Translations under genes and position numbers: made by a program | Sequence record: OL739525.1 | Origin: Escherichia phage dw-ec | Length of the DNA: 64,000 nt | Reading direction: 5' to 3' (one strand) | Shown here: positions 16,817 to 36,194 of the stretch, in pieces | Numbering within the stretch: position 1 is the stretch's first letter | How the letters are laid out: the number at the start of each line of letters is the position of its first letter | Notes under the pieces: model-generated | The model's input: only the letters and a program-made list of their open reading frames with translations | Databases searched by the model: none | Told to the model about the DNA's origin: nothing

Positions 16817-17095
16817 TTAAAATGGTTCGTTAGTCTCCATCATATATTCTGCTTCTAGTTCTTCCATGTGCTTTCTAAATTGGAAAGCAATTTCTGCTAC
16901 AGTTACATTTAAATCTTTTTCAAAAACTTCTGTAGAGCCTTCGTAAAAACGAATACCGTCAATTAAAAGCCCTCCGTGGTAATCCCAATCACTTTCACGA
17001 GAAAGCGGGTTAGGCTCTTCATAATAGTAATCCACCTCCACGACTAAAGCTTTCCCGTTACGAGTGGTGTATTCAAAATCAAAAGTGTTAATCAT
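16817..17095 (-). CDS. hypothetical protein
   Basis: 92 aa ORF tightly packed between primase and glycosyltransferase genes. Confidence 0.55.
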   Translation of the reverse strand: MINTFDFEYTTRNGKALVVEVDYYYEEPNPLSRESDWDYHGGLLIDGIRFYEGSTEVFEKDLNVTVAEIAFQFRKHMEELEAEYMMETNEPF

Positions 17096-18039
17096 TATAG
17101 CTCCTCAAATAAAAGTCTACGACGCTCATTCAACACATCAATGTGATAATGAGTCCTGACATACTTAGCTAATGCTAATCCTTTCTCCATGCAAACATCG
17201 GGAGCACTTAATAAGTATTCCGTAATATCTTTCCACTCGGAAGGTGTTTCAGCAAAGAATAACAAATCTTTAAACTCTTGCGTATGATAATTCTCACGAG
17301 GAGAACAGATCAAAGGTAAACCCTTAGCACCTGCCTCAAGAATTTTAAGATTGCTTTTTGCATTATTAAACACGTTATCAATCAATGGCGCAAGACTGAT
17401 TTGATGACCATCGTAAGATTCCATGTAGTTGGCATATGGTCTTACACCTTCATAAACACAAGTTGGTGCTACATTTTCTCTGATTACAGACCATTCACGA
17501 CTACTTAAAACTTCAGAATCCCTACGAAAACCACATATTGTAAGATCTTTACCAAAATCGGGCAAGATAGCCAAATCTTGTTTATGTGTTTCACTTCCAG
17601 CCCAGACTAATGGAGTTTTGGAGTAGCGATCACGGGTCAACACAAATTGACCTTCATCGTAAGGAAGTCCATTAGGGATTATGTGCACATTATCATTGTA
17701 TTGTGAAAGTTCAACTTGCAAAGCAGGTGTCGTAGTTGTGACAAGATCGCTGTGCTCTAAAAACCATTTTAAATGTTCACGAATACCTGATTCAAAAATA
17801 CCTTCTAACATGTGTCCTTTTGGAATAACTAAAGAGTCATCCAAATCCATAACCATTTTAAAGCCTAGGTTTTTAAGGGCTAAAAAGCCCTGTTTACCTT
17901 TTGTTGGCACCCCGTTAAAAACGAAAACGTTGTGTTTAGGTTGTGAAGAGAACTGCCTTGAGTAAGGCAGCACTACCCTATGGAAATCGCAGACACTATA
18001 ATTGATTCCGTTACGATTGTCAAGAATTATTTGTCCCAT
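17095..18039 (-). CDS. putative glycosyltransferase (GT-B fold), paralog 1
   Basis: 314 aa; C-terminal SNLKILEAGAKGLPLICS resembles GT-B (GT4-like) E..G.P motif; tandem paralog of 18047..18994. Confidence 0.55.
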   Translation of the reverse strand: MGQIILDNRNGINYSVCDFHRVVLPYSRQFSSQPKHNVFVFNGVPTKGKQGFLALKNLGFKMVMDLDDSLVIPKGHMLEGIFESGIREHLKWFLEHSDLVTTTTPALQVELSQYNDNVHIIPNGLPYDEGQFVLTRDRYSKTPLVWAGSETHKQDLAILPDFGKDLTICGFRRDSEVLSSREWSVIRENVAPTCVYEGVRPYANYMESYDGHQISLAPLIDNVFNNAKSNLKILEAGAKGLPLICSPRENYHTQEFKDLLFFAETPSEWKDITEYLLSAPDVCMEKGLALAKYVRTHYHIDVLNERRRLLFEEL

Positions 18040-18046
18040 ACTTCAC

Positions 18047-18994
18047 CTACAAACTTTCAATAACCTGGCGTCGCAACTCGTTTGCATCTGCCAGATTATA
18101 ATGTGTTCGAACATGTTCCGCCAAGAACAAACCACGATCTTCCCGATAGTTTGGATTGCGAAGAAGCTTAACAATTTCGTAATGCCATTCTGCTTTATTC
18201 TCTGCGTAAGCAACAGCGCGAGCATCTACAGGGTTAAAATAAGGTAATACCTTAGAACAAACAATTGGAATACCTTTTGCTCCAGCTTCCAGGATTTTGA
18301 GATTACTTTTACAATTATTAAAATCATTATCTACCAAAGGAGCTATAGCAATAGCATGACTTTCGTAAACACTCATGTAATTATCTAAATCTTTTACAGC
18401 GGCTTTATATTTGGCATTTGGTAAATTTCTGCGAATCTTAATCCACTCTTGTCCCGTGATGCTTTGTGATGCTTCATATCCCGCAATAGTAAGAAGTTCA
18501 TCATCGAAAGTATTAGAGACTAGTCGTAAATCTGGTTCGTGACTAGCACCGCCAGCCCATACAACAGGGGTACCGGATGAACGATCATTTGACAAAGTGA
18601 ATTGTCCACTATCAAAAGGAAGTGCATTTCGGATCACAACAACATTCCTATTTAAGTGACGGATCTTATATGCCAAATATTCTGTAGTCACAATAACCAC
18701 ATCAGCAAGCTTAACCATAGCTACAATAGCATGAGTGTTTGACTCGTATAGACTTGCTAAATAATGTTCTGGATTAAGTTGGTAGAAATCATCTAAATCT
18801 ACAACAATCTTAACACCTTGACGTTTCAAAGATAAAACGTATTCTGCACCTTTAGAGTGGATACGGTTAAACACAACAACATCTTTCTTAGGTTGAAGAT
18901 TATGGTTGTTAAATGGCATAACAATACGATGATAGTCACAACCGCTGTGAGGTTTTGCATCAATTTTTAGTTTAGACCATTTTTTATTTGACAT
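18047..18994 (-). CDS. putative glycosyltransferase (GT-B fold), paralog 2
   Basis: 315 aa; shares CD(F/Y)HR(V/I)V(L/M)P N-terminal motif and SNLKILEAGAKG(L/I)P C-terminal motif with 17095..18039. Confidence 0.55.
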   Translation of the reverse strand: MSNKKWSKLKIDAKPHSGCDYHRIVMPFNNHNLQPKKDVVVFNRIHSKGAEYVLSLKRQGVKIVVDLDDFYQLNPEHYLASLYESNTHAIVAMVKLADVVIVTTEYLAYKIRHLNRNVVVIRNALPFDSGQFTLSNDRSSGTPVVWAGGASHEPDLRLVSNTFDDELLTIAGYEASQSITGQEWIKIRRNLPNAKYKAAVKDLDNYMSVYESHAIAIAPLVDNDFNNCKSNLKILEAGAKGIPIVCSKVLPYFNPVDARAVAYAENKAEWHYEIVKLLRNPNYREDRGLFLAEHVRTHYNLADANELRRQVIESL

Positions 18995-19667
18995 GTGCTA
19001 GTGCCTCCTCATAGGAAATTCGGATTTTCCCATTTTTAATATCCTCTAAAGATGCTTTATATTCTTCCCAGTTAATCCCGATAGCAGCTTCTTTCTCTTC
19101 TTTTGTCAGATTAGCAAAAGGCATAGGATTGTTTCCAAAAACATCGTCTGGGTGGATATAAGCCATGATACGAAGTGGACAAGGTGTTGCCTGAATACCA
19201 TGATTCAAACCAGCAGCTTGTAAACGGTGTCCCCATTCAGCATCTTCAAAACCATAACCATGAGTGTAAGGACGGAAATAACCCATCTTCTCAACAACGG
19301 CACGAGAATACATTGCAAATTGACACATTGCAAGTTCCCAGAGAATAACTTCTCCTTTGCTTCCAACAACTTTATCTTTGAAGTACTCCGGCATACCAAA
19401 GAAATCCCATCCTCCAGAGACAGCTTGATCTACAAAATATGTTTCCCATCCCTCCATGACTGGGTAGCAATCGTCGTCAAAAATAAACCAATAATCATAA
19501 CCTTCTTCATAAAACTGGTGCATAAGTTCATTCCTGGCATAAGCTACACCTTTACGGTCTGGATCGTTGAATACTCGAAAATCTGCACGTGGATCTGTTA
19601 CAAGGTAGTCTTTAAGTGGACGGACACCTACAGTGATAACACCCACTCCGATTTTAATATTTTCCAT
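18984..19667 (-). CDS. putative glycosyltransferase (GT-A fold, DxD)
   Basis: 227 aa; WFIFDDDCYP (DxD) and YGFEDAEWGHRL motifs typical of GT-A family 2-like enzymes. Confidence 0.6.
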   Translation of the reverse strand: MENIKIGVGVITVGVRPLKDYLVTDPRADFRVFNDPDRKGVAYARNELMHQFYEEGYDYWFIFDDDCYPVMEGWETYFVDQAVSGGWDFFGMPEYFKDKVVGSKGEVILWELAMCQFAMYSRAVVEKMGYFRPYTHGYGFEDAEWGHRLQAAGLNHGIQATPCPLRIMAYIHPDDVFGNNPMPFANLTKEEKEAAIGINWEEYKASLEDIKNGKIRISYEEALAHVK

Positions 19668-19675
19668 TTTCTCTC

Positions 19676-20239
19676 CTAAATAGTTTTACTGTGATCATGA
19701 CAGTGTAATAAATGATGTATAGACCGTTGAGGATTTGTTTGACCTAATCTGTAAATGTGAAACAGATACATTCCCCGCATCAATCCTAACCTCTTCCCTT
19801 TTTCATGTAAAGTGCGAGAGAAAATTAAGTCGAATTGGATAGATTTTTCTTCGAAAGGAATTTCATTCCACAAGGATTTTCTAAAAAGCAAAAAGAAACC
19901 TGCTAGAGGTGTTCCGAAAGGAACTTCTTCAACACTCACTTTATGATATTCTCTTGCAATCTTAGCATATTCTATATGGTTTAGAATATCTGGATCATCG
20001 TTAATTTGGTTAGAGAAAAGCTGATAACCACTGCCTAACCTGTTACAAGTTGCACCTATTACATCAAAAGGTGGGTTTGACATAACAAGCTCTTCAAGCA
20101 TAGATGGTTGATCAGGTAGGAGGAACATTGTATCGGTATCTCTTAAACACACCCAACTATCATCTGGAAGAACGGCAATGGCTTCATTGATAGCCTTGCC
20201 GATATTTCCTGTCAGATAGGGAGTAATATAATAAATCAT
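19676..20239 (-). CDS. putative glycosyltransferase-like protein (GT-A-like)
   Basis: 187 aa; CLRDTDTMF DxD-like motif; weaker than neighbours. Confidence 0.4.
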   Translation of the reverse strand: MIYYITPYLTGNIGKAINEAIAVLPDDSWVCLRDTDTMFLLPDQPSMLEELVMSNPPFDVIGATCNRLGSGYQLFSNQINDDPDILNHIEYAKIAREYHKVSVEEVPFGTPLAGFFLLFRKSLWNEIPFEEKSIQFDLIFSRTLHEKGKRLGLMRGMYLFHIYRLGQTNPQRSIHHLLHCHDHSKTI

Positions 20240-21561: not shown

Positions 21562-22164
21562 TTATGGACATTCATACCATTCTTTTTTACCACCGAAGGC
21601 CATCACCACATCGCAAATATCCAGACCGGCTTTACCTACACCATATGCTTTCAGCTTCCATTCCCCATCTTCACGAACCAAGGAAGCCACGTGGCAGATT
21701 GTGTTACCAGCTACTTCAGGAGCCAGGAAGTCAAAATCCAGAATTTCCACATTACGTTCGGAGTCAAAGATTTTAAGCATACCTTCAGAAGCATGACCAA
21801 AACGTTTCAGACCTGTATCATCATCAATGGTCAGAACAAAGGCAATCTCTTGTGCATCAGGAGAGATTTTAGCCAGAGTAATATCAATCTGCTCCATGCT
21901 GCCAGTCCCATCACGAACATCGTCACCAGCGAAGGTAGAACGTTCAGGATCAAACTTGTTAGCGTAGCAAACCAGATGACGTGCAGACAGCATTTCAGGA
22001 TTGCCAGCGGCATTATGACGACAAACCAGTGCACTTACATCCAGATCCAGTTTAGAATCAGATTTCCAAGAGAATTCCAGGCGCAGTTCTTTCAGAGCCG
22101 GAGCAACTTTCTTCAGGGAAATTTTTTCGCTAGAGCCTTTTTTCAGGGAAATTTTATCAGTCAT
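21562..22164 (-). CDS. terD: TerD-family protein
   Basis: 200 aa; motifs parallel E. coli/plasmid TerD: LDLDVSALV, TFAGDDVRDGTGSMEQIDITL, EIAFVLTIDD, REDGEWKLKAYGVG. Confidence 0.85.
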   Translation of the reverse strand: MTDKISLKKGSSEKISLKKVAPALKELRLEFSWKSDSKLDLDVSALVCRHNAAGNPEMLSARHLVCYANKFDPERSTFAGDDVRDGTGSMEQIDITLAKISPDAQEIAFVLTIDDDTGLKRFGHASEGMLKIFDSERNVEILDFDFLAPEVAGNTICHVASLVREDGEWKLKAYGVGKAGLDICDVVMAFGGKKEWYECP

Positions 22165-22449: not shown

Positions 22450-22678
22450 TTCTTCCTCCTAATGTTATCTCCGGTTTGTATATACGAAGAATTATAGCAT
22501 TTTCATTTTCTTTGTCAACCCATTCTTCATAATCGGGCCATACATGAATCTCTACTCTACTTACAATATCTTCCATTCGCACAGTCCCAATGAAATACTC
22601 TTTGAGACTGCGCATAATGAAAGCTTCTCTCTCGCGCCAATAATTTTCTACGACTTGAGAGGCAAGCTCGTCGATCAT
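22430..22678 (-). CDS. hypothetical protein
   Basis: 82 aa ORF. Confidence 0.5.
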   Translation of the reverse strand: MIDELASQVVENYWREREAFIMRSLKEYFIGTVRMEDIVSRVEIHVWPDYEEWVDKENENAIILRIYKPEITLGGRSVKLRN

Positions 22679-23469
22679 TTTTTAGCACCTACTTTAACAA
22701 CCCACTCTCCGAACTCTTCAGATAAGAGTTTGTCATAAAGCTCTGAATCTGTCAAGTCTAAATCTTTAATGCCAATAAAACCAACATTATCATAAGCATT
22801 TGCCAGTTCTTTCAGGAAGCCAAACTTCTCATTACCAACGCCAACCATGAACCAATAAATAGGTTTATTCTTATTCTCTTCAATAAGACGACGAACAGCA
22901 CTAGGATCACCATTCTCACCATCCGTCTGGAAGAATACAACACCAGGGGTAACGTCAGCACCTGGTTCAGATACAGCTACAACTTTTTCACGCTCTACAG
23001 ACACTGTTTCAGTTTTACCAAGCAGACGATTAAAGAAGCCTTTCTTTGGAGCCTCCTCTTGTACCACTTGTTTAGTGGTAATATATTTGGTAACAGTGCC
23101 AAAATACTCATCGTAGATATCTGCCATTACAGGGGCGTAATTTGTTCCACCTCCGATACGAACATTACGCATACATTTACCAACATAGTCATCGTAAACG
23201 TCTGCTGTTGCTGGAGTAAGCTCTTGGGAACTCGTATTGAAGGCCCACATATCAATTTGTTGATTATCGTCGAACAGCATACCAAAAGGAAGCAGTTTAC
23301 CTACAAAATCACTCACTACCCCACTAGAATATAGACCATGCATACTACCAGAAATATCTAGAGCACATGCTACACGAAGAACAATCTTACCTTCATTCAG
23401 GTTCTTATTCTTTTTCAGAGAGAAAGCAAGGTTTTCTTGACGTTTTTTCAGGCTGATTTTCTCGGACAT
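22675..23469 (-). CDS. von Willebrand factor A (vWA) domain protein with TerD-like N-terminal leader (TerY/TerF-like)
   Basis: 264 aa; MIDAS motif ALDISGSMHG; N-terminus MSEKISLKK resembles TerD N-terminus; AGGAGA RBS. Confidence 0.65.
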   Translation of the reverse strand: MSEKISLKKRQENLAFSLKKNKNLNEGKIVLRVACALDISGSMHGLYSSGVVSDFVGKLLPFGMLFDDNQQIDMWAFNTSSQELTPATADVYDDYVGKCMRNVRIGGGTNYAPVMADIYDEYFGTVTKYITTKQVVQEEAPKKGFFNRLLGKTETVSVEREKVVAVSEPGADVTPGVVFFQTDGENGDPSAVRRLIEENKNKPIYWFMVGVGNEKFGFLKELANAYDNVGFIGIKDLDLTDSELYDKLLSEEFGEWVVKVGAKK

Positions 23470-24869: not shown

Positions 24870-25066
24870 TACTCCTCCTCCTCATTGAAGTCAATATCTG
24901 CAAGGAGTTCGAATTTACGGAAGTTACGACAACCTTCATAAATATAACAATCACGACAAACTGCTAGAACACTTGGGGGATATATACCTCCCATCGGCGC
25001 GAATCGTTTTTCGTCATCATAACGGACACCAATGTCCTCATCAATTATATAGATACGGATTCTCAT
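24869..25066 (-). CDS. hypothetical Cys-containing protein
   Basis: 65 aa ORF (CRDC...C). Confidence 0.45.
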   Translation of the reverse strand: MRIRIYIIDEDIGVRYDDEKRFAPMGGIYPPSVLAVCRDCYIYEGCRNFRKFELLADIDFNEEEE

Positions 25067-26175
25067 TTACCAAGCCCTCGTTTCACAGCAGCTACCATCC
25101 CGTCTTCCAGAGATTGAACTTCATTAATATAATCAACACGAGCAGCACGGGCTTCCGTATTGATGCGGTTAGTTTCTTCCAACATCTTAACCAAGTTTTC
25201 CTGATCGTGACGCAGAGTTTCAATATCCAACACTTGACGGTTAGCCAGTGCTGCTGCTTCGATCTGATTCTGTGTGGCAAGATCGCTACCCAGTTTAATT
25301 GCCAGGTTAAATTCATCAAGAACGTTATTCTGCGTCTCTGCTGCTTTCATTTGACGTAAGCTCTCGATATACATTGAGAAGTTAGCAGAGTAAGCAGGAA
25401 TAACATTATTTACTATGTTACGCGCAGATCGCATTAAGCTTGCAGAAACTTTTTGCATACCTTGTACACGCGGTCCCATTTGGACACACAGTAGGCGCAA
25501 TGCTTTTAAATCTGCAATACGAATCTCCAGAAGATCCAAAGTATCTCGGATCACTTGTCGCTGTTCTACTGCATCTTCTGGAAGAGCAGCCAAAGCTTGT
25601 TCTTCTTTTTCATAGGTTGCTGTTAGAAGCTGCATATCTCGGTTCAAACTTGCAGCATATTGTCCAATAGCTTGATGTAGCTTTTCAAGATATACCAAGG
25701 AATCTTCTTCTTTGCGAATATCCATTTGAAGGTTCTTTACCAACTCTTCAATACGGTTATTAACATTATCAAACTCCCCGAACAGGTCTTCTTTCATACC
25801 CATAACTTTTTTAATGAGTTTAGTAATACCCTTGCTTTGTTTAATAGAGTTTGGATCAAGTTGTTTTGCCTGTTTAATCAAAGCTGTAAGTCGTTCACTC
25901 ATCTGATCGCCTTGATTACTACGTTGATGTTTTAACACCTCGGCATTCAAGGAACGCAAGGTTGTTCCTGCCTCTGCCCCAATCTCTTCAATCTCTTGTC
26001 GGGTCATAGAAGGCAAAACTGGAACTTCTTGCGGTGCCGCTGGTGCATAAACAGGACTGGCATCTAACACGCTTGGAGCGAATACAGATTTACTTGCATC
26101 TGTTGTTGCAGCGAATACACTCATTTCAGACTTCTTCTGACCACCAGTAGCTGCTTTTAAAAATGGACTTGTCAT
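25063..26175 (-). CDS. TelA-like (toxic anion resistance family) protein
   Basis: 370 aa, largely helical; LDPNS and DIETL segments resemble TelA/KlaA family; genomic context with TerD/TerC; needs HMM confirmation. Confidence 0.5.
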   Translation of the reverse strand: MTSPFLKAATGGQKKSEMSVFAATTDASKSVFAPSVLDASPVYAPAAPQEVPVLPSMTRQEIEEIGAEAGTTLRSLNAEVLKHQRSNQGDQMSERLTALIKQAKQLDPNSIKQSKGITKLIKKVMGMKEDLFGEFDNVNNRIEELVKNLQMDIRKEEDSLVYLEKLHQAIGQYAASLNRDMQLLTATYEKEEQALAALPEDAVEQRQVIRDTLDLLEIRIADLKALRLLCVQMGPRVQGMQKVSASLMRSARNIVNNVIPAYSANFSMYIESLRQMKAAETQNNVLDEFNLAIKLGSDLATQNQIEAAALANRQVLDIETLRHDQENLVKMLEETNRINTEARAARVDYINEVQSLEDGMVAAVKRGLGK

Positions 26176-26762
26176 TCTTCATTCTCCTCTTCTGCATCTC
26201 TTATATATGGTGAAACACCGTACTCTTTAGCTACTTTAACCCAATCATCCCATTTATACAACCATAATTTTCCTTCAGTTCCTTCTTTATCTGATTTCAA
26301 CCACATGTTAGGTTGCTTGCCTGGGTACATGCGATTAGGTTTACGATTATAACCTCTAACACATCTTGTCGCAAACCTATCTACCAGAACAAGAACATAT
26401 TTATACTCGTGGTTCAACGGCTCTTTGGAAGTGGCTTTAGGATTAGCCCCTAACTCTGCTGCCAGTTTTTGCCAATGAGCACCGTGCCTACTAAACTTAC
26501 CCATACAACCATCAATAGCGTGAGCAATTTCGTGCTTCATTGTATCCACGATCATATCTCTTGTAGAGTTCTTATGCAAGTGCCAATTTACAACAACAAT
26601 TTTATCTCGGTAGTTGCACCAACCGAAAGAGTTATTCACTTTGTTTCTAACACAAGCTTTATATCCTGCTTCACGTAACATGTTGTAGTAAACAGGAAAA
26701 TCTTCTTTTATTTCCTGCATCACTTCCCACCACAAGAGTTGCAAGTCTCTCTCGGTATGCAT
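26172..26762 (-). CDS. SprT-like zinc metallopeptidase-domain protein
   Basis: 196 aa; HEIAHAID (HExxH) within SprT-like context. Confidence 0.5.
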   Translation of the reverse strand: MHTERDLQLLWWEVMQEIKEDFPVYYNMLREAGYKACVRNKVNNSFGWCNYRDKIVVVNWHLHKNSTRDMIVDTMKHEIAHAIDGCMGKFSRHGAHWQKLAAELGANPKATSKEPLNHEYKYVLVLVDRFATRCVRGYNRKPNRMYPGKQPNMWLKSDKEGTEGKLWLYKWDDWVKVAKEYGVSPYIRDAEEENEE

Positions 26763-28361: not shown

Positions 28362-28384
28362 TAGCCTCCCGAAGGAGGCTCATC
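28362..28384 (-). terminator. rho-independent terminator
   Basis: GCCUCC-uucg-GGAGGC stem-loop with U-rich tail on minus strand after terC-like gene. Confidence 0.6.
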
Positions 28385-28386
28385 TA

Positions 28387-29361
28387 TTAAATAGCAGCTT
28401 CTTCTTTTTCAGGGAAGATAAAGCTTGCAATAACACCAAGAGCTAATGTGCCTAGAACAATCATCAGACTTACGTTAGGGGAAATATCATGCGGGAGGAA
28501 TGACCACTTGGCATGAAGTGTTTCACCGAACGGGTGGTACATAAGTTTAGCACCAACAAACACCAGAACCACAGCAACAGCTTTCTCTAAGTGAACCAGA
28601 TATTTCACAGCTACACTCAACACAAAGAAAAGTGCACGTAAACCAAGAACAGCCATCAGCATTGCAGAATAAACTAGCAGAGGTTCTTGTGTCACACCGA
28701 TCACAGCCGGAACTGAATCAAAAGAGAAGACAATATCTGTAAGCTCAATAACAAACACACAAAGAAGAGCAGGAGTTGCATATTTAATACCATTCTTAAT
28801 GGTGATGAACTTTTCACCATCCAGTGCATTGTGCACAGGCAGAACTTTACCTACTAAACGAACAGCCCAATGCTTAGAGTAATCAATATCCTCTTCTTCG
28901 TCACCACCTTTGATGATAGCCACGGCAGACCAAGCTACAATCAAACCGAACAACACTTGGACCGACCAATGAAGGTTAAACAAAGCGGTCCCTGCTGCAA
29001 CAAAAATACCTCGGAAGACAATGGCTCCTGCAATCCCCCAAAGTAGAATCTTATGTTGGAGATGTGTGCTCTTAATTCCAAAGCTTGCAAAAATCGCCAT
29101 GAACACCATCAGGTTATCTACAGAAAGACTCTTTTCCAACACATAGCCACTTAGGAAAAGCGCGGCAAACTCTTTACCATGTTCTACCCAAATGAATGCG
29201 TAATATCCTAAAGCTAAAGCAATCCAAAAAACAGACCAAAGCAAAGCAGATTTAATTCCAATTTCTTTATTCTCTTTATGACCAAAGAAATCGATACCAA
29301 TAGACAATGCCAAAATACCAACTAAAACAACTACATCAATAATTGGGAAACCGAGTTGCAT
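28387..29361 (-). CDS. terC: TerC-family integral membrane protein
   Basis: 324 aa multi-pass membrane protein; SLSVDNLMVF and ELTDIVFSFDSVPAVIGVTQEP motifs typical of TerC/Alx family. Confidence 0.8.
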   Translation of the reverse strand: MQLGFPIIDVVVLVGILALSIGIDFFGHKENKEIGIKSALLWSVFWIALALGYYAFIWVEHGKEFAALFLSGYVLEKSLSVDNLMVFMAIFASFGIKSTHLQHKILLWGIAGAIVFRGIFVAAGTALFNLHWSVQVLFGLIVAWSAVAIIKGGDEEEDIDYSKHWAVRLVGKVLPVHNALDGEKFITIKNGIKYATPALLCVFVIELTDIVFSFDSVPAVIGVTQEPLLVYSAMLMAVLGLRALFFVLSVAVKYLVHLEKAVAVVLVFVGAKLMYHPFGETLHAKWSFLPHDISPNVSLMIVLGTLALGVIASFIFPEKEEAAI

Positions 29362-29378
29362 TCTTTTCTCCTCTCTTT

Positions 29379-29437
29379 GCGGGGAACTATTCCCCGCTTC
29401 ATGTGATATATCTTACTCTTTTTAAGAACTATGTCAA
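29379..29437 (-). promoter_or_regulatory. promoter-leader cassette on minus strand (TTGACA-16-TAAGAT + GCGGGGAA-tag-TTCCCCGC stem-loop) driving terC
   Basis: Same -35/-10/hairpin/AAAGAGAGG leader architecture as the plus-strand early cassettes, here upstream of 28387..29361. Confidence 0.6.
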
Positions 29438-29440
29438 CAC

Positions 29441-29662
29441 TTATTTTGTTGAATGAGAGGAAAAGATTCCTCGTAATACCGCCAGAATAAACGAAACACA
29501 AACCACGGTCCAGAAGGTTACTGGGACAGTGATATCTGCATGACCCATAACTTCAGCAACATAGTTGTAAGCCAGCAACAGTAACCAAGCTGGAATCAAA
29601 CTAAGCATAAAAGCAATAACAAAAAAGCTTACCACTGCAACAATACCTGCAAAAACACCCAT
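29441..29662 (-). CDS. small membrane protein (2 TM helices)
   Basis: 73 aa hydrophobic ORF. Confidence 0.5.
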   Translation of the reverse strand: MGVFAGIVAVVSFFVIAFMLSLIPAWLLLLAYNYVAEVMGHADITVPVTFWTVVCVSFILAVLRGIFSSHSTK

Positions 29663-29674
29663 ACTAATCTCCTC

Positions 29675-30148
29675 TTAAAGTTTATAAATAGTCACATCGT
29701 GACCTGTTTTTACTAAAGTTTCTTCAATCATCACTTGGATGATAGCCCAATTACCTCCAGCATATCCAGCGCCAATCATAGGTAAGCCGATCTTACATTT
29801 TTGGTCACGGAGAAGCAAATCATTAGCCATAGCTATTAGTGCATCGTAAAGTGCATCATAGTCCAACTGACGACCTTTAGCATTGTATCCATAACGGTAT
29901 TGCCCGTATAGATTATATACCAAAGGGTCTGATTGTTCGTCTGGCACCCCTAAACTAAAACAACCTAGTTTACTTTGATCACCAGCCATTGTGTCTAAGT
30001 CTGCTGCATATGCGTAAGGAAATGCTTGTTTGATTTGTGGGGCAATACCTGCCCCCATATTACACATACAGTTGCAACAATGAGCAATAACAGTTACTTC
30101 ACCTGCTTTAGCGGCATCAATAAGATTACCTCTTTTCATTTTAAGCAT
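29675..30148 (-). CDS. macro domain-like protein (ADP-ribose processing)
   Basis: Internal ATG at 30148 with AAGGAG RBS; G.LIDA...VIAHCCNCMCNMGAGIA and later IGLPMIGAGYAGG resemble macro-domain Gly-rich loops. Confidence 0.5.
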   Translation of the reverse strand: MLKMKRGNLIDAAKAGEVTVIAHCCNCMCNMGAGIAPQIKQAFPYAYAADLDTMAGDQSKLGCFSLGVPDEQSDPLVYNLYGQYRYGYNAKGRQLDYDALYDALIAMANDLLLRDQKCKIGLPMIGAGYAGGNWAIIQVMIEETLVKTGHDVTIYKL

Positions 30149-30161
30149 TTTTAGCTCCTTA

Positions 30162-30989
30162 TTACAGAATGTGTTGTTTTGTGTAACGATCCAAGAATTC
30201 AAAGTTTTCAGCATACTTTGAAATTCGGTTGTAACCTTCTCCCAAACATCCAAAGAAAAGTTGCTCTACATAGTAATGTGGCAATTGGCTAAGAATGATT
30301 TTGAAGTCTTCATGATTTTGGCCCATAAGATACTTAATAGGACGAACAAGACACTGTGCATCACGTTCTTCATTAATCATTTTAACAAACGCTTCTGGTG
30401 TATTAATGTAGTTAAAATTCAGTTTAGCTTCGGTATCTGCTTGATTACCTTCGTATTTTGCAAAATACAAGAAGTAAACATCATTTTTAACTTGATTTTC
30501 ATCAAGGATCTCAATCAGTTTGTCTTCATGCGTTCCAGTGATATTTACATCATCAATGAATACAAGCTTCTTATCACCCCAGAATTCTTTGTTGCAGTAG
30601 AATGTATCCCCATCAATAAGTTTCTTACGACTAGCTTTATCCAAGAAACCATAATCGTTGATATAGCTAACTTTACGATGAATAATGTCCAGTTCTGCTG
30701 AACGACCTTGATCATATTGTGATTGCAACATATTAAAATAATTAATAAAATGATCTGTCATCATTGTTGCAGCATTATGCACATGGTTATAAGGAGAAGG
30801 AATGATAACAAATTGTTCCCCAATATGTTTCATTGCCACTTGAGCAAAAAACTGAAGTGCCAATTCTTTACCCATACGACGCGCAGCTTGGTTACTACCA
30901 AATTTCAATTTTGAATAATCTTGGATATCAAAAGTAGCAGTTTCCAGGTCATCAAATTTATTTGCAAAAATTTGAGTTTGATTACGCAT
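30162..30989 (-). CDS. phosphoribosyltransferase-like protein (type I PRTase PRPP motif)
   Basis: 275 aa; LVFIDDVNITGTH matches hhhhDDhxxTGxT PRPP-binding loop; GAGGAGA RBS. Confidence 0.55.
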   Translation of the reverse strand: MRNQTQIFANKFDDLETATFDIQDYSKLKFGSNQAARRMGKELALQFFAQVAMKHIGEQFVIIPSPYNHVHNAATMMTDHFINYFNMLQSQYDQGRSAELDIIHRKVSYINDYGFLDKASRKKLIDGDTFYCNKEFWGDKKLVFIDDVNITGTHEDKLIEILDENQVKNDVYFLYFAKYEGNQADTEAKLNFNYINTPEAFVKMINEERDAQCLVRPIKYLMGQNHEDFKIILSQLPHYYVEQLFFGCLGEGYNRISKYAENFEFLDRYTKQHIL

Positions 30990-31638
30990 TTACAATTTCT
31001 CCTCTTTTAAGTTTCTCTAGTAAGTCGTTAGGGTTCTTAATATGACAGAAGTTAAATCCTAAGTCAACACATTTTCCATCATATTCTTCACTATCACCTA
31101 CATGCAACACTTCGTGCCCTAACAGAGGGATCGGAGAATACGTGAGCGTGCGAGCAAAGAATCGCGGATCTGGTTTACAAAGTAAAGCTTCATCCGAGAA
31201 ATGGGTGAACTCAAAACAATTCCAACTATCAAACTTACAAGCACGACGCAGGATATCCCCTGATATGAAGTTGGTATTGCTCTTAATACTCAAATCATAA
31301 CGCCCCGAAAGATACAGCAAGTACATCGGCAGATCCACGGCTACGTGTGGTGGAAACTTAAGGAACCACTGTTCACACTCGAAACGAAGCTTTGCAGACT
31401 TCCAAGGCGTTATCCCAAGTTCAGAACCAAGTCTTTCCCAGGCGTATGCTGCACACTCGGCTTTGCCTTGAAGTGCTGCATTATCCAGTTCCTTTTTGAT
31501 CTTTTTATAAGCTGCTCTTGCTTCCACTTCCGTAATATCTCCATATTTTGCGATAGTCCAGGCTCGCATGTCTGCGTAATTGGAGTTTGCTGTGATCAGT
31601 GTGTTCCATACATCAAAAGAGATATGTTTAATAGTCAT
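30982..31638 (-). CDS. HAD-superfamily hydrolase
   Basis: 218 aa; motif I FDVWNTLI and motif IV-like HVGDSEEYD. Confidence 0.55.
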   Translation of the reverse strand: MTIKHISFDVWNTLITANSNYADMRAWTIAKYGDITEVEARAAYKKIKKELDNAALQGKAECAAYAWERLGSELGITPWKSAKLRFECEQWFLKFPPHVAVDLPMYLLYLSGRYDLSIKSNTNFISGDILRRACKFDSWNCFEFTHFSDEALLCKPDPRFFARTLTYSPIPLLGHEVLHVGDSEEYDGKCVDLGFNFCHIKNPNDLLEKLKRGEIVNA

Positions 31639-31639
31639 A

Positions 31640-32245
31640 TTAAGCCCACCATGCGTCTAAGTTAAGATTACTGTCCACTACCACTTGTTCTATGTGGTAG
31701 CCTTTTATCTGTATCCCACTATTCAAGAGCATATCATACGCTTCATTGAAACGCAACTTATCTTCTGCGGAATATAAGCGAGCATTATAAAATCGGTAAT
31801 CAACTTCTTCAGCATTAGAAGAAATACGGAAGAAGTTTGTTTCTACTTCGGGATCACTTGCTGAAGTCTTAATGTGAACTTCTCCGTAATTTTCTTTACT
31901 TAGATCCATGAAAAGAACACAGGCAACATGTTTAAACATTCGTTCCAGCTTGTAACGAACAACATTGAAACCTGCATTCTCAAGTTTTTCTACACACTGC
32001 AACATTAAAGTAGTGTCGAGATCGCTTTGATACTTTGTTAACATACGATCACGTTGAGACTTTGTATCCCGATGTAAATCAATTGTTGTGCATTTGGCAC
32101 CAATAATCTTAGCTGCTTTCATCAACTCTTCAGAACTAACGTTAGATAAAGTAAGATGAAAATGGGCTTTCCACACTTTTTTAGCAGGGACACCAAAAGA
32201 TTTATCCCCACTATTCGGCATGTTGACTACTACACTATGTTGCAT
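31640..32245 (-). CDS. 2H phosphoesterase-family protein (LigT/CPDase-like)
   Basis: 201 aa; two H-x-T motifs (HLTL, HIKT) ~95 residues apart. Confidence 0.45.
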   Translation of the reverse strand: MQHSVVVNMPNSGDKSFGVPAKKVWKAHFHLTLSNVSSEELMKAAKIIGAKCTTIDLHRDTKSQRDRMLTKYQSDLDTTLMLQCVEKLENAGFNVVRYKLERMFKHVACVLFMDLSKENYGEVHIKTSASDPEVETNFFRISSNAEEVDYRFYNARLYSAEDKLRFNEAYDMLLNSGIQIKGYHIEQVVVDSNLNLDAWWA

Positions 32246-32465: not shown

Positions 32466-32936
32466 TTAATCTGATTGCCAACCACTTGCCGTTTTGGTCC
32501 ATAATCTTTGATTATCTGACCCTCTGAAAGGTTTTGTAGTTGGATTGTTTATTTCATACTTTCCGTCTACAATAATGTCAACAAGATTTTTAATATACAA
32601 AGGCACTTCCTCAAAAGTATATCCTGTATACACCATTATATCTTTGCTTGACCCATAAACGTCTCTAACCTTTTCTATAAGGTTTTTAACATTGTAAATA
32701 TTCTGCGGATCTAATGGCTCTCCTCCTAAAATTGTTAAACCTTTTACAAACGGTCTTGACAAATCTTTTAAAACTTGCTCTACATTTTCGTGAGTGAACG
32801 GTTTCCCATAAGAATAAGACCAGGCTTTTTGGTTAAAACAGCCACGACAACCGTGGCTACAACCACTAACCCAGAGGGAGCACCTAACTCCCTCACCATT
32901 AATAAGATCTACAGGTTCATATCCTGCAAAATTCAA
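32466..32936 (-). CDS. nrdG: anaerobic ribonucleotide reductase activating protein (radical SAM)
   Basis: 156 aa; CSHGCRGC radical-SAM cysteine cluster; TTG start overlapping nrdD stop. Confidence 0.85.
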   Translation of the reverse strand: MNFAGYEPVDLINGEGVRCSLWVSGCSHGCRGCFNQKAWSYSYGKPFTHENVEQVLKDLSRPFVKGLTILGGEPLDPQNIYNVKNLIEKVRDVYGSSKDIMVYTGYTFEEVPLYIKNLVDIIVDGKYEINNPTTKPFRGSDNQRLWTKTASGWQSD

Positions 32937-34747
32937 AGATGTTTCTCCCTTTGCAAAACTTCCTGCATTTTACCTTTGTTGTAAGGCCGTGAATTAGGGG
33001 CAGAAAGATACCCTGATACACGTCTAACTACAGAAATAGTTTCTTCTTCATGGTTGCCACAATCAGGACACTCAAACCCTTTAGCCGTTGCCTTAAATTC
33101 TCCATGAAAACCACACTTAAAGCATTGATCCACGGGCTGATTAATACCAAAATAGTGAATATGTTCATAAGCGTAGTCTACTAAAGTCTCCAAAGCTTCT
33201 AAGTTATTCTTTAAGTTTGGTGTTTCGACATAACTTATGTTACCACCATTGCTAATCTGTGCAAAACCTGCTTCATAATCCCATTTTTCAAAAGGATTTG
33301 TTACCAACCATACAGGTTGGTGAAAAGAGTTGGTAAGATAGTCTCTTTCTACCAAACCTGGGTATTTTTCATTTAAAGCTGTTGCAAACTTATAACACAA
33401 GGATTCTGCTGGAGTTCCATAGAGACTAAACGCCAACTTAGATCGTTCTTTAAACACAGCACACACATCTTTCATATGTTGCAGAATGCTTTTACCAAGT
33501 TCCTTTTTATCTTTTTCTTCTGGATAAAGGATTTCCAAAGCTTCGGCAAGACCTACATAACCAATACTAATAGAAGCATAACCACCTTCAAACAAAACAC
33601 CAATTTCATCATTGGCATTTAAACGCGCTAAAGCCCCTTCCATGAAAAGAATAGGGTTTTCAGATGCTTTGGTATGTCTGATACGGTTTACACGTAACAT
33701 GTGAGCATCGTAGGCTATCTCCATATGTTTATTAAGAAGATCGGTGAAAGATTCTCCTTTACTTCTCGCTTCCGCAGCGATCAGAGGTAAGTTGATAGAA
33801 ACTACTCCAAGGTTGAATCGTCCATCGTATTTTTCTCCTTGTTCGGTGGCATAGTACGACAAAAAGGAACGACAACCCATACTCGTAACAGTGCCATCTG
33901 CTGATCCCGTAACTTCTTTGTTCAAAGGAACAGAAATAAAATCTGGATAAATACGATCAGCACAACATGCCAAAGCTTGTTGCTTAAGGTCATAGTTAGG
34001 ATCACTAGGTTTCATGTTAACACCTTCTTGTAAAAAGAAAATAACTTTAGGGAATACAGGTGTTACATGATCTTTGCCTAGACCGTTACTATGAACTTTA
34101 AGATAGTTAGCTGTGATCATTCTGCCAAAAACAGAGGTATCCAGACCCATACTGATTGTAATAAAAGGAGATTGTCCATTAACACTCATTAAAGTATTAA
34201 CCTGATACAAGAGAGTTTGCATAGCATCATATACATCTTGTTCGGTCATTTCTAGTGCTTCTTTCCTTGCATAACAACCGTAGCGACGTTTGGTTATCTC
34301 CATGTTTTTAAGGAAACTAGCTTCAACATAAGGACTAAGACCTTTATCAATGTGCGCACACGTCTGACCTCCATACTGACTGGAGGCAACAGCTTGGATG
34401 ATTTGAGTTAGCACTGTGGTAGCTACCCCAATAGATTTTGGTTTTTCTATCTGTGCGGCTCCGATCTTAAAGCCATTCTCTAACATATCTTGATAATTAA
34501 CAAGACAACAGTTTGTAAGAGGAGAGAGTAGATAATCTAAGTCGTGAATATGTCCAAAACCTTCTGTATGCCATTCTGACAAGTTTTTTGGCAGTATCTG
34601 TGTCATTGCCATATGTTTGCTTAAAATCCCCGCCAAGAGATCCCTATGCGTGTTAACGAGGTGGGAAGGTTTGTTTGCATTCTCTCTAGTGTATGTTTCT
34701 GAAGTGCGATCTAAAAAAGAAAAAACATCTTGGTACAAATCTTTCAT
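32933..34747 (-). CDS. nrdD: anaerobic ribonucleoside-triphosphate reductase (class III)
   Basis: 604 aa; C-terminal zinc ribbon (CFKCG...CPDCG) and glycyl-radical motif RRVSGYL. Confidence 0.9.
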   Translation of the reverse strand: MKDLYQDVFSFLDRTSETYTRENANKPSHLVNTHRDLLAGILSKHMAMTQILPKNLSEWHTEGFGHIHDLDYLLSPLTNCCLVNYQDMLENGFKIGAAQIEKPKSIGVATTVLTQIIQAVASSQYGGQTCAHIDKGLSPYVEASFLKNMEITKRRYGCYARKEALEMTEQDVYDAMQTLLYQVNTLMSVNGQSPFITISMGLDTSVFGRMITANYLKVHSNGLGKDHVTPVFPKVIFFLQEGVNMKPSDPNYDLKQQALACCADRIYPDFISVPLNKEVTGSADGTVTSMGCRSFLSYYATEQGEKYDGRFNLGVVSINLPLIAAEARSKGESFTDLLNKHMEIAYDAHMLRVNRIRHTKASENPILFMEGALARLNANDEIGVLFEGGYASISIGYVGLAEALEILYPEEKDKKELGKSILQHMKDVCAVFKERSKLAFSLYGTPAESLCYKFATALNEKYPGLVERDYLTNSFHQPVWLVTNPFEKWDYEAGFAQISNGGNISYVETPNLKNNLEALETLVDYAYEHIHYFGINQPVDQCFKCGFHGEFKATAKGFECPDCGNHEEETISVVRRVSGYLSAPNSRPYNKGKMQEVLQREKHL

Positions 34748-34847
34748 TATTAATCCTTATTTTGTGAGTAGAACTATTATTCTACCTCTTCCAACCGAAA
34801 AAAGCTTTGAGGAAAATCAAAAAAGGCGCAAAGTGCGCCTTTAAGTT

Positions 34848-36194
34848 TTATCGTTTGGAGAGGAATTGTCTTCCCATGATCTTACCGTTCTTTACAGCGG
34901 TCCCATCGTGTCCATTATAATCCCAAGTTCCATCAATGTTACGCAAGAAGCTATCACGAACAGTGTAGGCTTTACCGTTCTCTACTTTACTTTCTTCCAC
35001 AATGATTGCCATAACAAGCTTATTTTCAATTTCGGTAGTAACCGATTCTTTAATACCCTCTGTAACTTCACGATCATATTGGATATAAACTCGCTCCTCG
35101 GTCACTTGCACGTCTACCACATTTTTAAATGTGTATGTCTGCTGTGTAGTGTAAAGGACACGAACGACACTCTTCTTACCTACTGGCGGCTTCTGACGAC
35201 GCTTGCGGTAACGTGGAGACGGGTTAAGTTGAATATAACCTACAATATCTGACCCATCTCCAGAGTGGCTCCAATAAAACGTCTCTGCCAAACCTTTTCC
35301 TTTGTCCCCATTTCGAAAAAGGATATTAACAGGACCATCACAAGGGCGTCTACCTCCGATGTGGGCTTGGTATTTTGCTGTTCTTGGGAGAACAAAATAT
35401 TCTTCAATCTGCCATTCACTGTCGTATTTCTCCCATTCGAAGTGGTTGGCTTTGCATACTTCTAAAACACCATTTTTGTAACGGACTTGAACAAAGTCCT
35501 CACAAGGTTGAATACCTGTATTAGGAATATAGGTAGGCTCTGTGTCTTCTGGTTCAAAAGTCTCTTTTTGTTGTTCTACATCTTCCACTTTTCTTACATG
35601 CTTAGTATAAAACATATCTTTAAACTCCTGTGCTTCAACCTCAACTGCAAATTCATGTTCTCTAACAGCCGGAGGCACAAGGCTTCCACACTCAAGATGT
35701 AGAGCATCCAGACCTGCCATTTTATCGTAAAAGATAACTTTTCGATACTTCTTACCGTCTTCTGGAATAGCAGGGTCTACTCGTTTAAGACGGGAAGCAT
35801 CGTTTTTAGTCCAAAAACTCTTCCCTGTTGTATTATTGAAAGTAGTAATCATTTCTCCAATTTCTTCTTCAGAAAGGTTACTAGTGTCTGTGTAAACATC
35901 TTCAATTTTTAGCATTTTAGTTTTCTTAAAAATTAAATCTAGCATTGCATCTCCTGTAAAACGTAGTTCATTATCTCCTACTGTCGGCTCTCCAGAAAAT
36001 TCATCAGTCCCGACTGTGTGACAGATGTATGGAAAATTTGTGCAACCGTGTAAAAGAGCATATTGTCCTGTAAGTTTAGGATCTGTCTCTTTAGTCCAAC
36101 CATATGCAATCTCAATAGCTTTGCAAAGCCTATCGAACAAGCCCCGATTGTTTGCCGCTGTTACCAAATCTTGCTTATGTGCATATACATTCAT
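34848..36194 (-). CDS. hypothetical protein
   Basis: 448 aa ORF with GGAGG RBS; no motif recognised. Confidence 0.6.
   Translation of the reverse strand: MNVYAHKQDLVTAANNRGLFDRLCKAIEIAYGWTKETDPKLTGQYALLHGCTNFPYICHTVGTDEFSGEPTVGDNELRFTGDAMLDLIFKKTKMLKIEDVYTDTSNLSEEEIGEMITTFNNTTGKSFWTKNDASRLKRVDPAIPEDGKKYRKVIFYDKMAGLDALHLECGSLVPPAVREHEFAVEVEAQEFKDMFYTKHVRKVEDVEQQKETFEPEDTEPTYIPNTGIQPCEDFVQVRYKNGVLEVCKANHFEWEKYDSEWQIEEYFVLPRTAKYQAHIGGRRPCDGPVNILFRNGDKGKGLAETFYWSHSGDGSDIVGYIQLNPSPRYRKRRQKPPVGKKSVVRVLYTTQQTYTFKNVVDVQVTEERVYIQYDREVTEGIKESVTTEIENKLVMAIIVEESKVENGKAYTVRDSFLRNIDGTWDYNGHDGTAVKNGKIMGRQFLSKR

Follow-up and report, generated by a model that had tools for sequence, protein, structure and literature searches.

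Whether genes packed together in a phage genome also act together is the question raised by four genes at positions 29675–32245 of a 64,000-nucleotide (nt) stretch of Escherichia phage dw-ec (sequence record OL739525.1), the whole of which is referred to below as the window. The original prediction, made from the nucleotide sequence, saw in them an operon for a macrodomain protein, a phosphoribosyltransferase (PRTase), a HAD hydrolase and a 2H phosphoesterase, which would jointly salvage or detoxify ADP-ribose (ADPR) or compounds related to nicotinamide adenine dinucleotide (NAD). The reading favoured here, to which we assign a probability of roughly 0.55, is that the four genes share a longer transcription unit, extending from nrdD to TerC, but represent three functional modules, namely, a coupled HAD–PRTase cassette, a macrodomain protein and the product of an open reading frame (ORF) denoted X. 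Each is of a known kind, corresponding, respectively, to the PRTase–HAD module of Ter systems, the AdfM-type macrodomains and a catalogued family of viral proteins.

Gene conservation and the transcription unit

Judged by sequence, the source phage is a Phapecoctavirus, a phAPEC8-like phage of Escherichia coli (Stephanstirmvirinae), the region being 99.6% identical to Escherichia phage Mt1B1_P17 and ~70 other Phapecoctavirus genomes. The cluster consists, as predicted, of four minus-strand ORFs adjoining nrdG and nrdD, which encode, in the order of transcription, X (31640–32245; 201 amino acids, aa), a HAD-superfamily hydrolase that appears subfamily IA-like (30982–31638; 218 aa), a ComF-like type I PRTase (30162–30989; 275 aa; Pfam family PF15610, PRTase_3) and a macrodomain protein of the SCO6735/BT1257/T4 Tk.4 (AdfM) clade (29675–30148; 157 aa). 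Because each has a strong PHROG family (E-values of 1e-55 to 1e-161) and all four are 99% conserved across ~70 phage genomes, the ORFs can be considered real genes.

The four genes do not travel together. We surveyed 31 loci carrying PF15610 homologues (34–100% identity) in viral contigs, metagenomes and bacterial genomes. A homologous HAD gene lies directly upstream of the PRTase gene in all 31, often with the same 8-nt overlap as in the window (26–32 nt in Ensifer and Sinorhizobium), and when ORFs within ~6 kb were clustered, these two were the only genes common to all 21 nonredundant loci, the next commonest neighbours being TerC, TerD and TelA (seven loci each) and vWA-TerF (six loci). The HAD–PRTase pair is a conserved unit, a strictly coupled two-gene cassette, and the only invariant part of the cluster, as either X or the macrodomain can be present where the pair is absent, and vice versa. 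X is missing from phi92-like phages that keep the HAD, PRTase and macrodomain genes (loci L005 and L009), and Rheinheimera phages carry it without the pair, as does phage ME3; a scan of the whole ME3 genome placed the homologue ~80 kb away from the Ter cluster, flanked by genes for histidine-phosphatase, DHH and metallophosphoesterase proteins. In at least 10 further viral lineages and at every bacterial locus, the macrodomain gene is missing within 10 kb of the pair, and the 12 kb around Tk.4, the T4 homologue of the macrodomain gene, contain no annotated PRTase, HAD or Ter gene. Among close relatives, identities vary from gene to gene: in L021, a contig nearly identical to the window, identity is 100% for X and the PRTase but 77% for the HAD, and in another locus (L008), it is 93% for the HAD, 76% for X and 79% for the PRTase. 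Such mosaic identities suggest recombination breakpoints at gene boundaries inside the cluster and independent histories of its genes.

Co-transcription is nevertheless likely. The gap between X and the HAD gene is 1 nt, the HAD and PRTase genes overlap by 8 nt, and 13 nt separate the PRTase gene from that of the macrodomain protein, the start codon of which is the ATG at 30148, preceded by an AAGGAG ribosome-binding site; the longer ORF 29675–30253, beginning with a TTG, is an artefact of the ORF caller. Neither a promoter nor a terminator that would convincingly set the four genes apart was found. The best two terminator-like hairpins of the region, both recorded on the minus strand, are a strong bidirectional one at 34822–34842, upstream of nrdD, and an intrinsic-terminator-like one at 28363–28380, 3′ of TerC, and are the likely 5′ boundary and 3′ end, respectively, of a unit that therefore probably comprises nrdD–nrdG–orf–X–HAD–PRTase–macrodomain–orf–TerC. 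Upstream of X on the minus strand, this unit includes the genes for NrdG, the anaerobic ribonucleotide reductase activase (32466–32936), and NrdD, the class III ribonucleotide reductase (32933–34747); the second unnamed ORF (29441–29662, minus strand) encodes a small hydrophobic protein (73 aa; phrog_16065) and is kept between the macrodomain and TerC genes in relatives. Hence, of the predicted four-gene operon, the tight packing stands, but nothing delimits the four genes and the boundary drawn around them was arbitrary.

The HAD–PRTase cassette and its link to Ter genes

The PRTase matches PF15610 with 142.5 bits (cut-off 28.7) over residues 11–266 of 275, which upholds the PRTase-like identity originally proposed. 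The motif singled out in that proposal, LVFIDDVNITGTH, is a true family-invariant loop for binding phosphoribosyl pyrophosphate (PRPP; consensus IDDVxITGTHE), whereby D146, D147, T151, G152, T153 and H154 do not vary among 25 diverse homologues; further invariant motifs are SPYN..NAAT, HRKVSYxNDYGFL, VRPIKY and GCLxEGY. Sequence and profile searches of the PDB with the PRTase recovered only the PRPP loop of HGPRT (E-value of 0.19), and a Pfam/NCBIfam profile scan gave no Nampt or NAPRTase signal. The family is represented in 156 phage records, including Stephanstirmvirinae and Klebsiella, Xanthomonas (XaC1), Rhizobium, Caulobacter and Brevundimonas phages. The protein is, by profile, a ComF-like type I PRTase for which PRPP-dependent transfer is predicted; the annotations 'orotate phosphoribosyltransferase' and 'DNA methyltransferase' that it carries in some records are inconsistent with these results or unsupported.

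Homology of its partner to the HAD superfamily is clear from a match to the archaeal protein PH1421 (PDB 2om6; E-value of 7.6e-05) and from the motifs, even though PF00702 is matched below the cut-off (21.2 versus 26.4 bits) and all NCBIfam matches are far under theirs. The nucleophile D9 of motif I, FDVWNT, is conserved in all 25 partner HADs aligned, and motifs II–IV (S-x-x-S-N-T-N-F, K-P and H-V-G-D...D) are kept in nearly all of them, the exception being one with a truncated C-terminus (L032). The position of the Asp+2 general acid is occupied by Trp in 24 of the 25 and by Tyr in the remaining one (L015), giving the family pattern D-x-W/Y-[N/G/R]-T; PH1421 shares this feature of motif I. 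The HAD assignment thus holds, but for a protein without the general acid of HAD phosphatases, and simple 5′-nucleotidase chemistry is therefore not assured.

From these features we infer what the cassette does. The PRTase would use PRPP to ribosylate a base-like acceptor, and the HAD would then process the phosphate of the resulting ribotide to yield a nucleoside-like small molecule; dephosphorylation of a ribotide made by the PRTase is a reasonable inference. The same logic operates in PRTase-plus-phosphatase routes to free ribosides such as the CobT/CobC route to alpha-ribazole, in which ribosyl transfer to a base, of the PRPP or the nicotinic acid mononucleotide (NaMN) type, is followed by 5′-dephosphorylation by a dedicated partner. 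The proteins come from unrelated families, however, CobT not being a type I PRTase and CobC being a histidine phosphatase, and the HAD described here lacks the usual acid/base residue.

Downstream of the cluster, on the same strand and within 9 kb, the window encodes four Ter proteins, all above the Pfam or NCBIfam cut-offs and none mentioned in the original prediction: a TerC/Alx-family integral membrane protein (28387–29361; TIGR03718, 319 bits), a protein of the TelA (toxic anion resistance) family (25063–26175; PF05816, 115.7 bits), a vWA-TerF-like protein (22675–23469) and a TerD-domain protein (21562–22164). Ter systems have been described, in later work of the group that first defined them, as comprising PRTases and HAD phosphoesterases for the production of a nucleoside or nucleotide derivative, the ligand binders TerB and TerD, TerC, and TelA/TerF-vWA; the PRTase and HAD constitute their biosynthetic module, phages included, and a relatively complete version has been noted in phage ME3 and 'certain other related smaller tailed phages' (PMC7824862; PMC5512222). 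The module producing a 'nucleoside-like metabolite' is a computational prediction of 2012 (Anantharaman, Iyer and Aravind, as related in PMC7824862 and PMC5512222). The locus in the window resembles this module in the adjacency of a PF15610 PRTase and a HAD, in the proximity of the four Ter genes and in its phage location, of the sort already noted for ME3 (PMC7824862). It differs in having a single PRTase, of the ComF-like type, in the absence of the Asp+2 residue from the HAD, in the occurrence of the pair without Ter genes in bacteria, and in that the window ORFs scanned yielded no ATP-grasp protein, TIM-barrel C-C lyase, TerB or TerZ.

In the three-module reading, the phage cassette would be part of a Ter-type system together with TerD, vWA-TerF, TelA and TerC, and its metabolite would act as a signal for the membrane-associated metal-binding Ter complex or as a ligand that this complex senses, with a possible role in superinfection exclusion or host manipulation. 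Literature searches found no experimental report on a phage-type Ter system (on resistance to tellurite, phages or colicins, or on superinfection exclusion) and nothing experimental on PF15610/PRTase_3 or a characterized phage PRTase–HAD pair. Linkage of the pair to Ter genes is frequent but not obligate. In Ensifer, Sinorhizobium and an Akkermansiaceae metagenome-assembled genome (MAG), the pair stands alone among unrelated genes, and the bacterial exception is a Haliea MAG with a TerD gene 1.1 kb from the pair. Neither Sinorhizobium kostiense (L023) nor the Akkermansiaceae MAG (L027) has a Ter gene within 10 kb; neighbours of the bacterial pair encode a LysE exporter, a GntR-aminotransferase and a ClpP-like protease, or a trypsin-like protease and a Na/Ca exchanger.

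An alternative product of the cassette would be a modified nucleotide or nucleoside for hypermodification of phage DNA or RNA, perhaps with the participation of nrdDG and glycosyltransferases. The pair does lie close to nucleotide-metabolism genes, and downstream of the Ter cluster there are four consecutive glycosyltransferase-like genes (17095–20239), one of which (18984–19667) shows a weak, below-cut-off match to a TET-associated glycosyltransferase family; all four have homologues near the HAD–PRTase/Ter region of a distant 153-kb phage (L017) as well. However, relatives of the phage were found to be exceptionally sensitive to restriction–modification systems in the BASEL study (PMC8594841), and phi92-like phages have the same pair; the cassette stands alone among housekeeping genes in bacterial chromosomes, and the genes conserved along with it across the 21 loci include no kinase, dNMP-modifying enzyme or DNA transferase. 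We consider hypermodification very improbable.

The macrodomain protein as a probable AdfM

The predicted macrodomain identity is borne out by a match to PF01661 (22.3 bits, cut-off 22) and by PDB matches to SCO6735 (5e3b; E-value of 2.5e-12) and BT1257 (1e-08), with DarG and TARG1 next in line. The protein shares 34% identity with T4 Tk.4 (E-value of 7e-21) and also matches the PADLOC model for DarG (5.6e-10). Its YGQ motif aligns with IGQ of SCO6735 and YTQ of Tk.4, and AHCCN with AHVCN, whereby the active-site Asn is present and a Gln takes the position of DarG K80 and TARG1 K84. The replacement of the catalytic Lys of DarG/TARG1 by Gln and of TARG1 Asp125 by Ala is exactly as in SCO6735, an enzyme that strips thymidine-linked ADPR from DNA and neutralizes DarT, with Q85 and N27 being essential (PMC9411070); both residues align in the phage protein. 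Tk.4 was reported in a preprint of 2025 to be AdfM, the anti-DarTG2 factor of T4, the knockout of which sensitized the phage to DarTG2 (bioRxiv 10.1101/2025.11.20.689424), and AdfM macrodomains of chimalliviruses take DarT2 marks off DNA, according to a paper of 2026 (PMC13309987).

The most economical reading of these similarities is that the protein is probably an AdfM-type anti-DarT2 enzyme, that is, a DNA ADP-ribosyl glycohydrolase, which would strip thymidine-linked ADPR from phage DNA and thereby counter DarTG2-type defence. It belongs to the ALC1-like macrodomain class along with AdfM, SCO6735 and DarG2, and has a long basic loop resembling that of SCO6735. Unlike DarG2, it has no DarT-binding second domain, and unlike the T4 gene, it is located beside Ter and PRTase–HAD genes. 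For this part of the cluster, the original suggestion of a role against ADP-ribosylating host defences fits.

In some relatives (L005–L007), the PRTase and macrodomain genes are parted by 0.3–0.95 kb of extra, unrelated sequence. Klebsiella phage phi1_175008 has at this place (L034, 6106–6669) a 187-aa gene annotated as a MazG-like pyrophosphatase, which has no Pfam match and, lacking any similarity to X, is not its paralogue.

ORF X and its family

The fourth gene was taken for a 2H phosphoesterase on account of two H-x-T motifs, HLTL and HIKT. The first is conserved (H30 and T32), and X shares with 2H proteins such as ThpR/LigT and Acb1 a similar size (~180 aa), an N-terminal F-H-x-H-Φ-T-Φ like the second ThpR motif, FHPHITL, and a second conserved His ~94 residues on. 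The second motif is in fact H-x-K-T, unlike the H-x-T/S of 2H proteins, the conserved residue being Lys126 in H124-I-K126 (Lys in 83% and Arg in 6% of 139 members, Thr and Ser not being among the commonest residues). X itself has no Pfam match at E-values up to 1 and none in NCBIfam or in PDB sequence and profile searches; the 2H models PF13563 and PF02834 are each weakly matched by one of the 144 aligned family members (E-values of 0.007–0.009). When the 144-member alignment was compared with E. coli ThpR using hhalign, the probability was 2.3% and covered only 13 columns (FHxHIT versus FHPHITL), and the corresponding values were 0.3% for a phage Acb1 and 0.5% for a CYTH domain. A search for ThpR homologues gave only close relatives (73% identity or more), too narrow a set for a deep 2H profile. 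The fold is predicted to consist of two ferredoxin-like alpha+beta halves, and the fold test did not recover a LigT-like bilobed fold. By profile, fold and second motif, X is, thus, not recognizable as a 2H phosphoesterase.

What X might be is suggested by its conservation and by its family. Eight residues (R97, K99, E101, E122, H124, S142, E186 and D191) are family-invariant, as are H30, T32 and K51, and the four acidic ones (E101, E122, E186 and D191) suggest metal-dependent chemistry. The family comprises 253 cluster representatives at E-values of 1e-3 or better, which are mostly viral; the ~10 genomic contexts inspected are all phage-like, and structural relatives are also present in giant viruses. 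X domains are fused to NUDIX domains in 14 representatives, to a SpoT-like HD_4 domain in one and to HTH_3 in one. The NUDIX fusions (P0195, P0201, P0209, P0212, P0225, P0233 and others) are ~340 aa long, with an N-terminal MutT/RppH-like NUDIX domain and the X domain at the C-terminus. The HD_4–X gene (4001–5125 in L047/L048, phage contigs of 75–93 kb) directly follows a NAD kinase gene, with genes for Nampt and a NadM-like Nmnat/Nudix protein 3–4 kb upstream, so the locus looks like an extended phage NAD(P) module with an X domain. In a 110-kb phage contig (L037, 6001–7021 and 10545–10976), a 36%-identical homologue overlaps the start of a gene for the anti-CBASS protein Acb1, and an AdfN-like NADAR gene lies 4 kb downstream; this neighbourhood looks anti-defence. 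A search for NADAR and Acb1 homologues found none in the window itself.

Most likely, X is a lineage-specific accessory gene for a protein predicted from these features to bind or hydrolyse nucleotides in a metal-dependent manner, and in the three-module reading it may act in counter-defence or in nucleotide housekeeping. A bolder proposal, which we consider unlikely, is that X founds a new family of metal-dependent nucleotide phosphoesterases or sensors (of the NAD(P), ADPR or alarmone type), which would cooperate with the macrodomain and HAD–PRTase proteins in making or destroying an ADPR-like or nucleoside signal that controls the phage Ter complex or blunts nucleotide-based immunity. It is entertained because the NUDIX and SpoT-HD fusions and the NAD kinase and Acb1 neighbours point that way. 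If true, it would amount to a functional analogue of an ADPR/NAD pathway built from non-2H, non-Nampt parts.

A different role is suggested by the PADLOC models for the antitoxin AbiEi, which match X (PDLC02277, 3.6e-13; PDLC02279, 3.1e-12) and 142 of the 144 family members (best 2e-76). X could then be an orphan antitoxin-like counter-defence protein directed against a toxin of the AbiEii/MenT type and, with the DarG-like macrodomain protein, form an 'orphan antitoxin' island flanking the Ter genes. Phage orphan antitoxins have precedents in AdfN (PMC11825919) and AdfM, one family member is the HTH_3 fusion, and one is the homologue beside Acb1 with the NADAR gene 4 kb off. Yet the canonical AbiEi Pfam model (a winged helix-turn-helix) does not match X, no AbiEii-like gene was found in the ~10 contexts, X has no match in plasmids and the PADLOC label is itself unverified, all of which makes this role unlikely. 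As annotations of X or its family, 'AbiEi' and 'MazG-like pyrophosphatase' are inconsistent with our results or unsupported. A further PADLOC candidate model, PDC-S07, is matched by 11 family members.

The proposed single ADP-ribose or NAD pathway

Under the pathway originally proposed, the 2H protein would open ADP-ribose 1″-2″-cyclic phosphate (Appr>p), the macrodomain protein would remove the 1″-phosphate, and the PRTase and HAD would rebuild or trim phosphoribosyl nucleotides, so that the four enzymes jointly offset NAD-depleting or ADP-ribosylating defences. The tight packing and probable co-transcription of the four genes agree with this scheme, as do the presence of the macrodomain clade near PRTase–HAD/Ter genes in three lineages, and next to a NAD synthetase gene in ME3, the association of the X family with NUDIX, NAD kinase, Nampt and NadM, and the motif that X shares with ThpR along with the two stray 2H matches. 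However, X fails the 2H profile, fold and second-motif comparisons and is dispensable in phi92-like phages; the macrodomain groups with SCO6735 and AdfM, which take ADPR off DNA, and not with Poa1p/MacroD; the PRTase is ComF-like; at most loci, the pair lacks the macrodomain or X; and there is no Adps-like or Nmnat-like gene among those examined at 17–38 kb of the window. Given the class of the PRTase, the missing acid of the HAD and the separate distribution of the genes, the sequential 2H-then-macrodomain logic on Appr>p has no footing, and we regard a unified salvage pathway as improbable.

Comparison with the known NAD reconstitution pathways of phages leads in the same direction. The cluster shares with NARP1 (Adps and Namat) and NARP2 (Nampt and Nmnat) its phage origin, a phosphoribosyl-transfer chemistry and a possible counter-defence role, but none of the four proteins matches the NAPRTase, NAMPT, CTP_transf-like or PRPP-synthetase families, and the one true NARP2 set encountered belongs to an unrelated phage, where it accompanies the HD–X fusion. 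Among the families against which the original prediction proposed to compare the cluster, the macrodomains were matched, and Nampt, Namat, Adps and LigT were not. What remains of the predicted NAD or nucleotide link is the association of X-family members elsewhere with enzymes of that kind.

Observations that weigh against three modules

Several observations count against the division proposed here. Six of the ~16 viral lineages and nearly all bacterial loci have no Ter gene within 10 kb of the HAD–PRTase pair, the PDB search found no solved relatives of PF15610 beyond the PRPP loop, and the HAD family lacks its Asp+2 general acid. The macrodomain protein has no counterparts of K34 and V25 of SCO6735, having Ala and Cys instead, and the PADLOC 'AbiEi' label of X is unexplained. 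Most pertinent to the independence of the modules, the macrodomain clade is found near Ter or PRTase–HAD genes in three lineages, that is, Stephanstirmvirinae, a 197-kb phage (L014) and the Acinetobacter jumbo phage ME3, against a rough expectation of ~0.65 of 13, a crude estimate. Its distance from the pair is 0.1–0.9 kb in Stephanstirmvirinae and 6.3 kb in L014. In ME3, an iterative search of the 235-kb genome retrieved a single macrodomain gene of this clade, located 1.6 kb from vWA-TerF, 4.8 kb from a PRTase–HAD–PRTase set (with PRTases of different families) and next to NAD synthetase. The ME3 Ter cluster (L054, 9142–19173; 209–219 kb of the record), an independent recurrence of such a neighbourhood, consists, in the order of the record, of genes for PRTase, HAD, PRTase, a hypothetical protein, TerD, a hypothetical protein, a membrane protein, vWA, two hypothetical proteins, the macrodomain, a hypothetical protein and NAD synthetase, and is transcribed in the opposite order.

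This recurrence is suggestive of a functional link, whereby the macrodomain protein would be integral to the Ter/PRTase–HAD system, hydrolysing or sensing an ADPR-like or ribosyl conjugate or resetting an ADP-ribosylation that regulates the Ter complex. Besides the proximity (0.1–6.3 kb in the three lineages), the probable co-transcription of the macrodomain gene with TerC speaks for such a role. On the other side are the lineages in which the pair is without a nearby macrodomain, the T4 gene, which has no such neighbours and the knockout of which renders the phage DarTG2-sensitive, and the unrelated sequence that parts the two genes in some relatives; moreover, accessory and anti-defence genes of phages cluster anyway. 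We, therefore, hold integration into the Ter system to be possible but unlikely.

Other features of the region

A gene for a protein with a SprT-like Zn-metalloprotease domain (26172–26762, minus strand), located between TelA and TerC, is carried by only some relatives (L007 and L008) and is missing in phi92-like loci. The 79-nt gap before TerC (29362–29440) holds a promoter-like TTGACA-16-TAAGAT site and a perfect 7-bp hairpin (CGGGGAA tag TTCCCCG); an Rfam scan of the whole window matched no family, including the yybP-ykoY riboswitch known for alx. Upstream of nrdD, ORF 34848–36194 (448 aa) has no Pfam match and is unusually variable, showing 58% identity in SKA64, where the flanking genes are 83–100% identical. 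The SKA64 homologue is labelled 'class III ribonucleotide reductase', a label for which we found no support.

Concluding remarks

The PRTase–HAD module of Ter systems has been a purely computational prediction since 2012, and is now recognized in a family of cultivable, genetically tractable E. coli phages. A coupled cassette that includes a HAD with an unusual active site offers a practical entry to the predicted metabolite and to the role of Ter systems in phages. The macrodomain protein predicts that phAPEC8-like and phi92-like phages would resist DarTG2 via an AdfM-type enzyme, which bears on the host range of phages considered for therapy, and the X family can reasonably be regarded as a candidate source of a new counter-defence activity directed at nucleotides.

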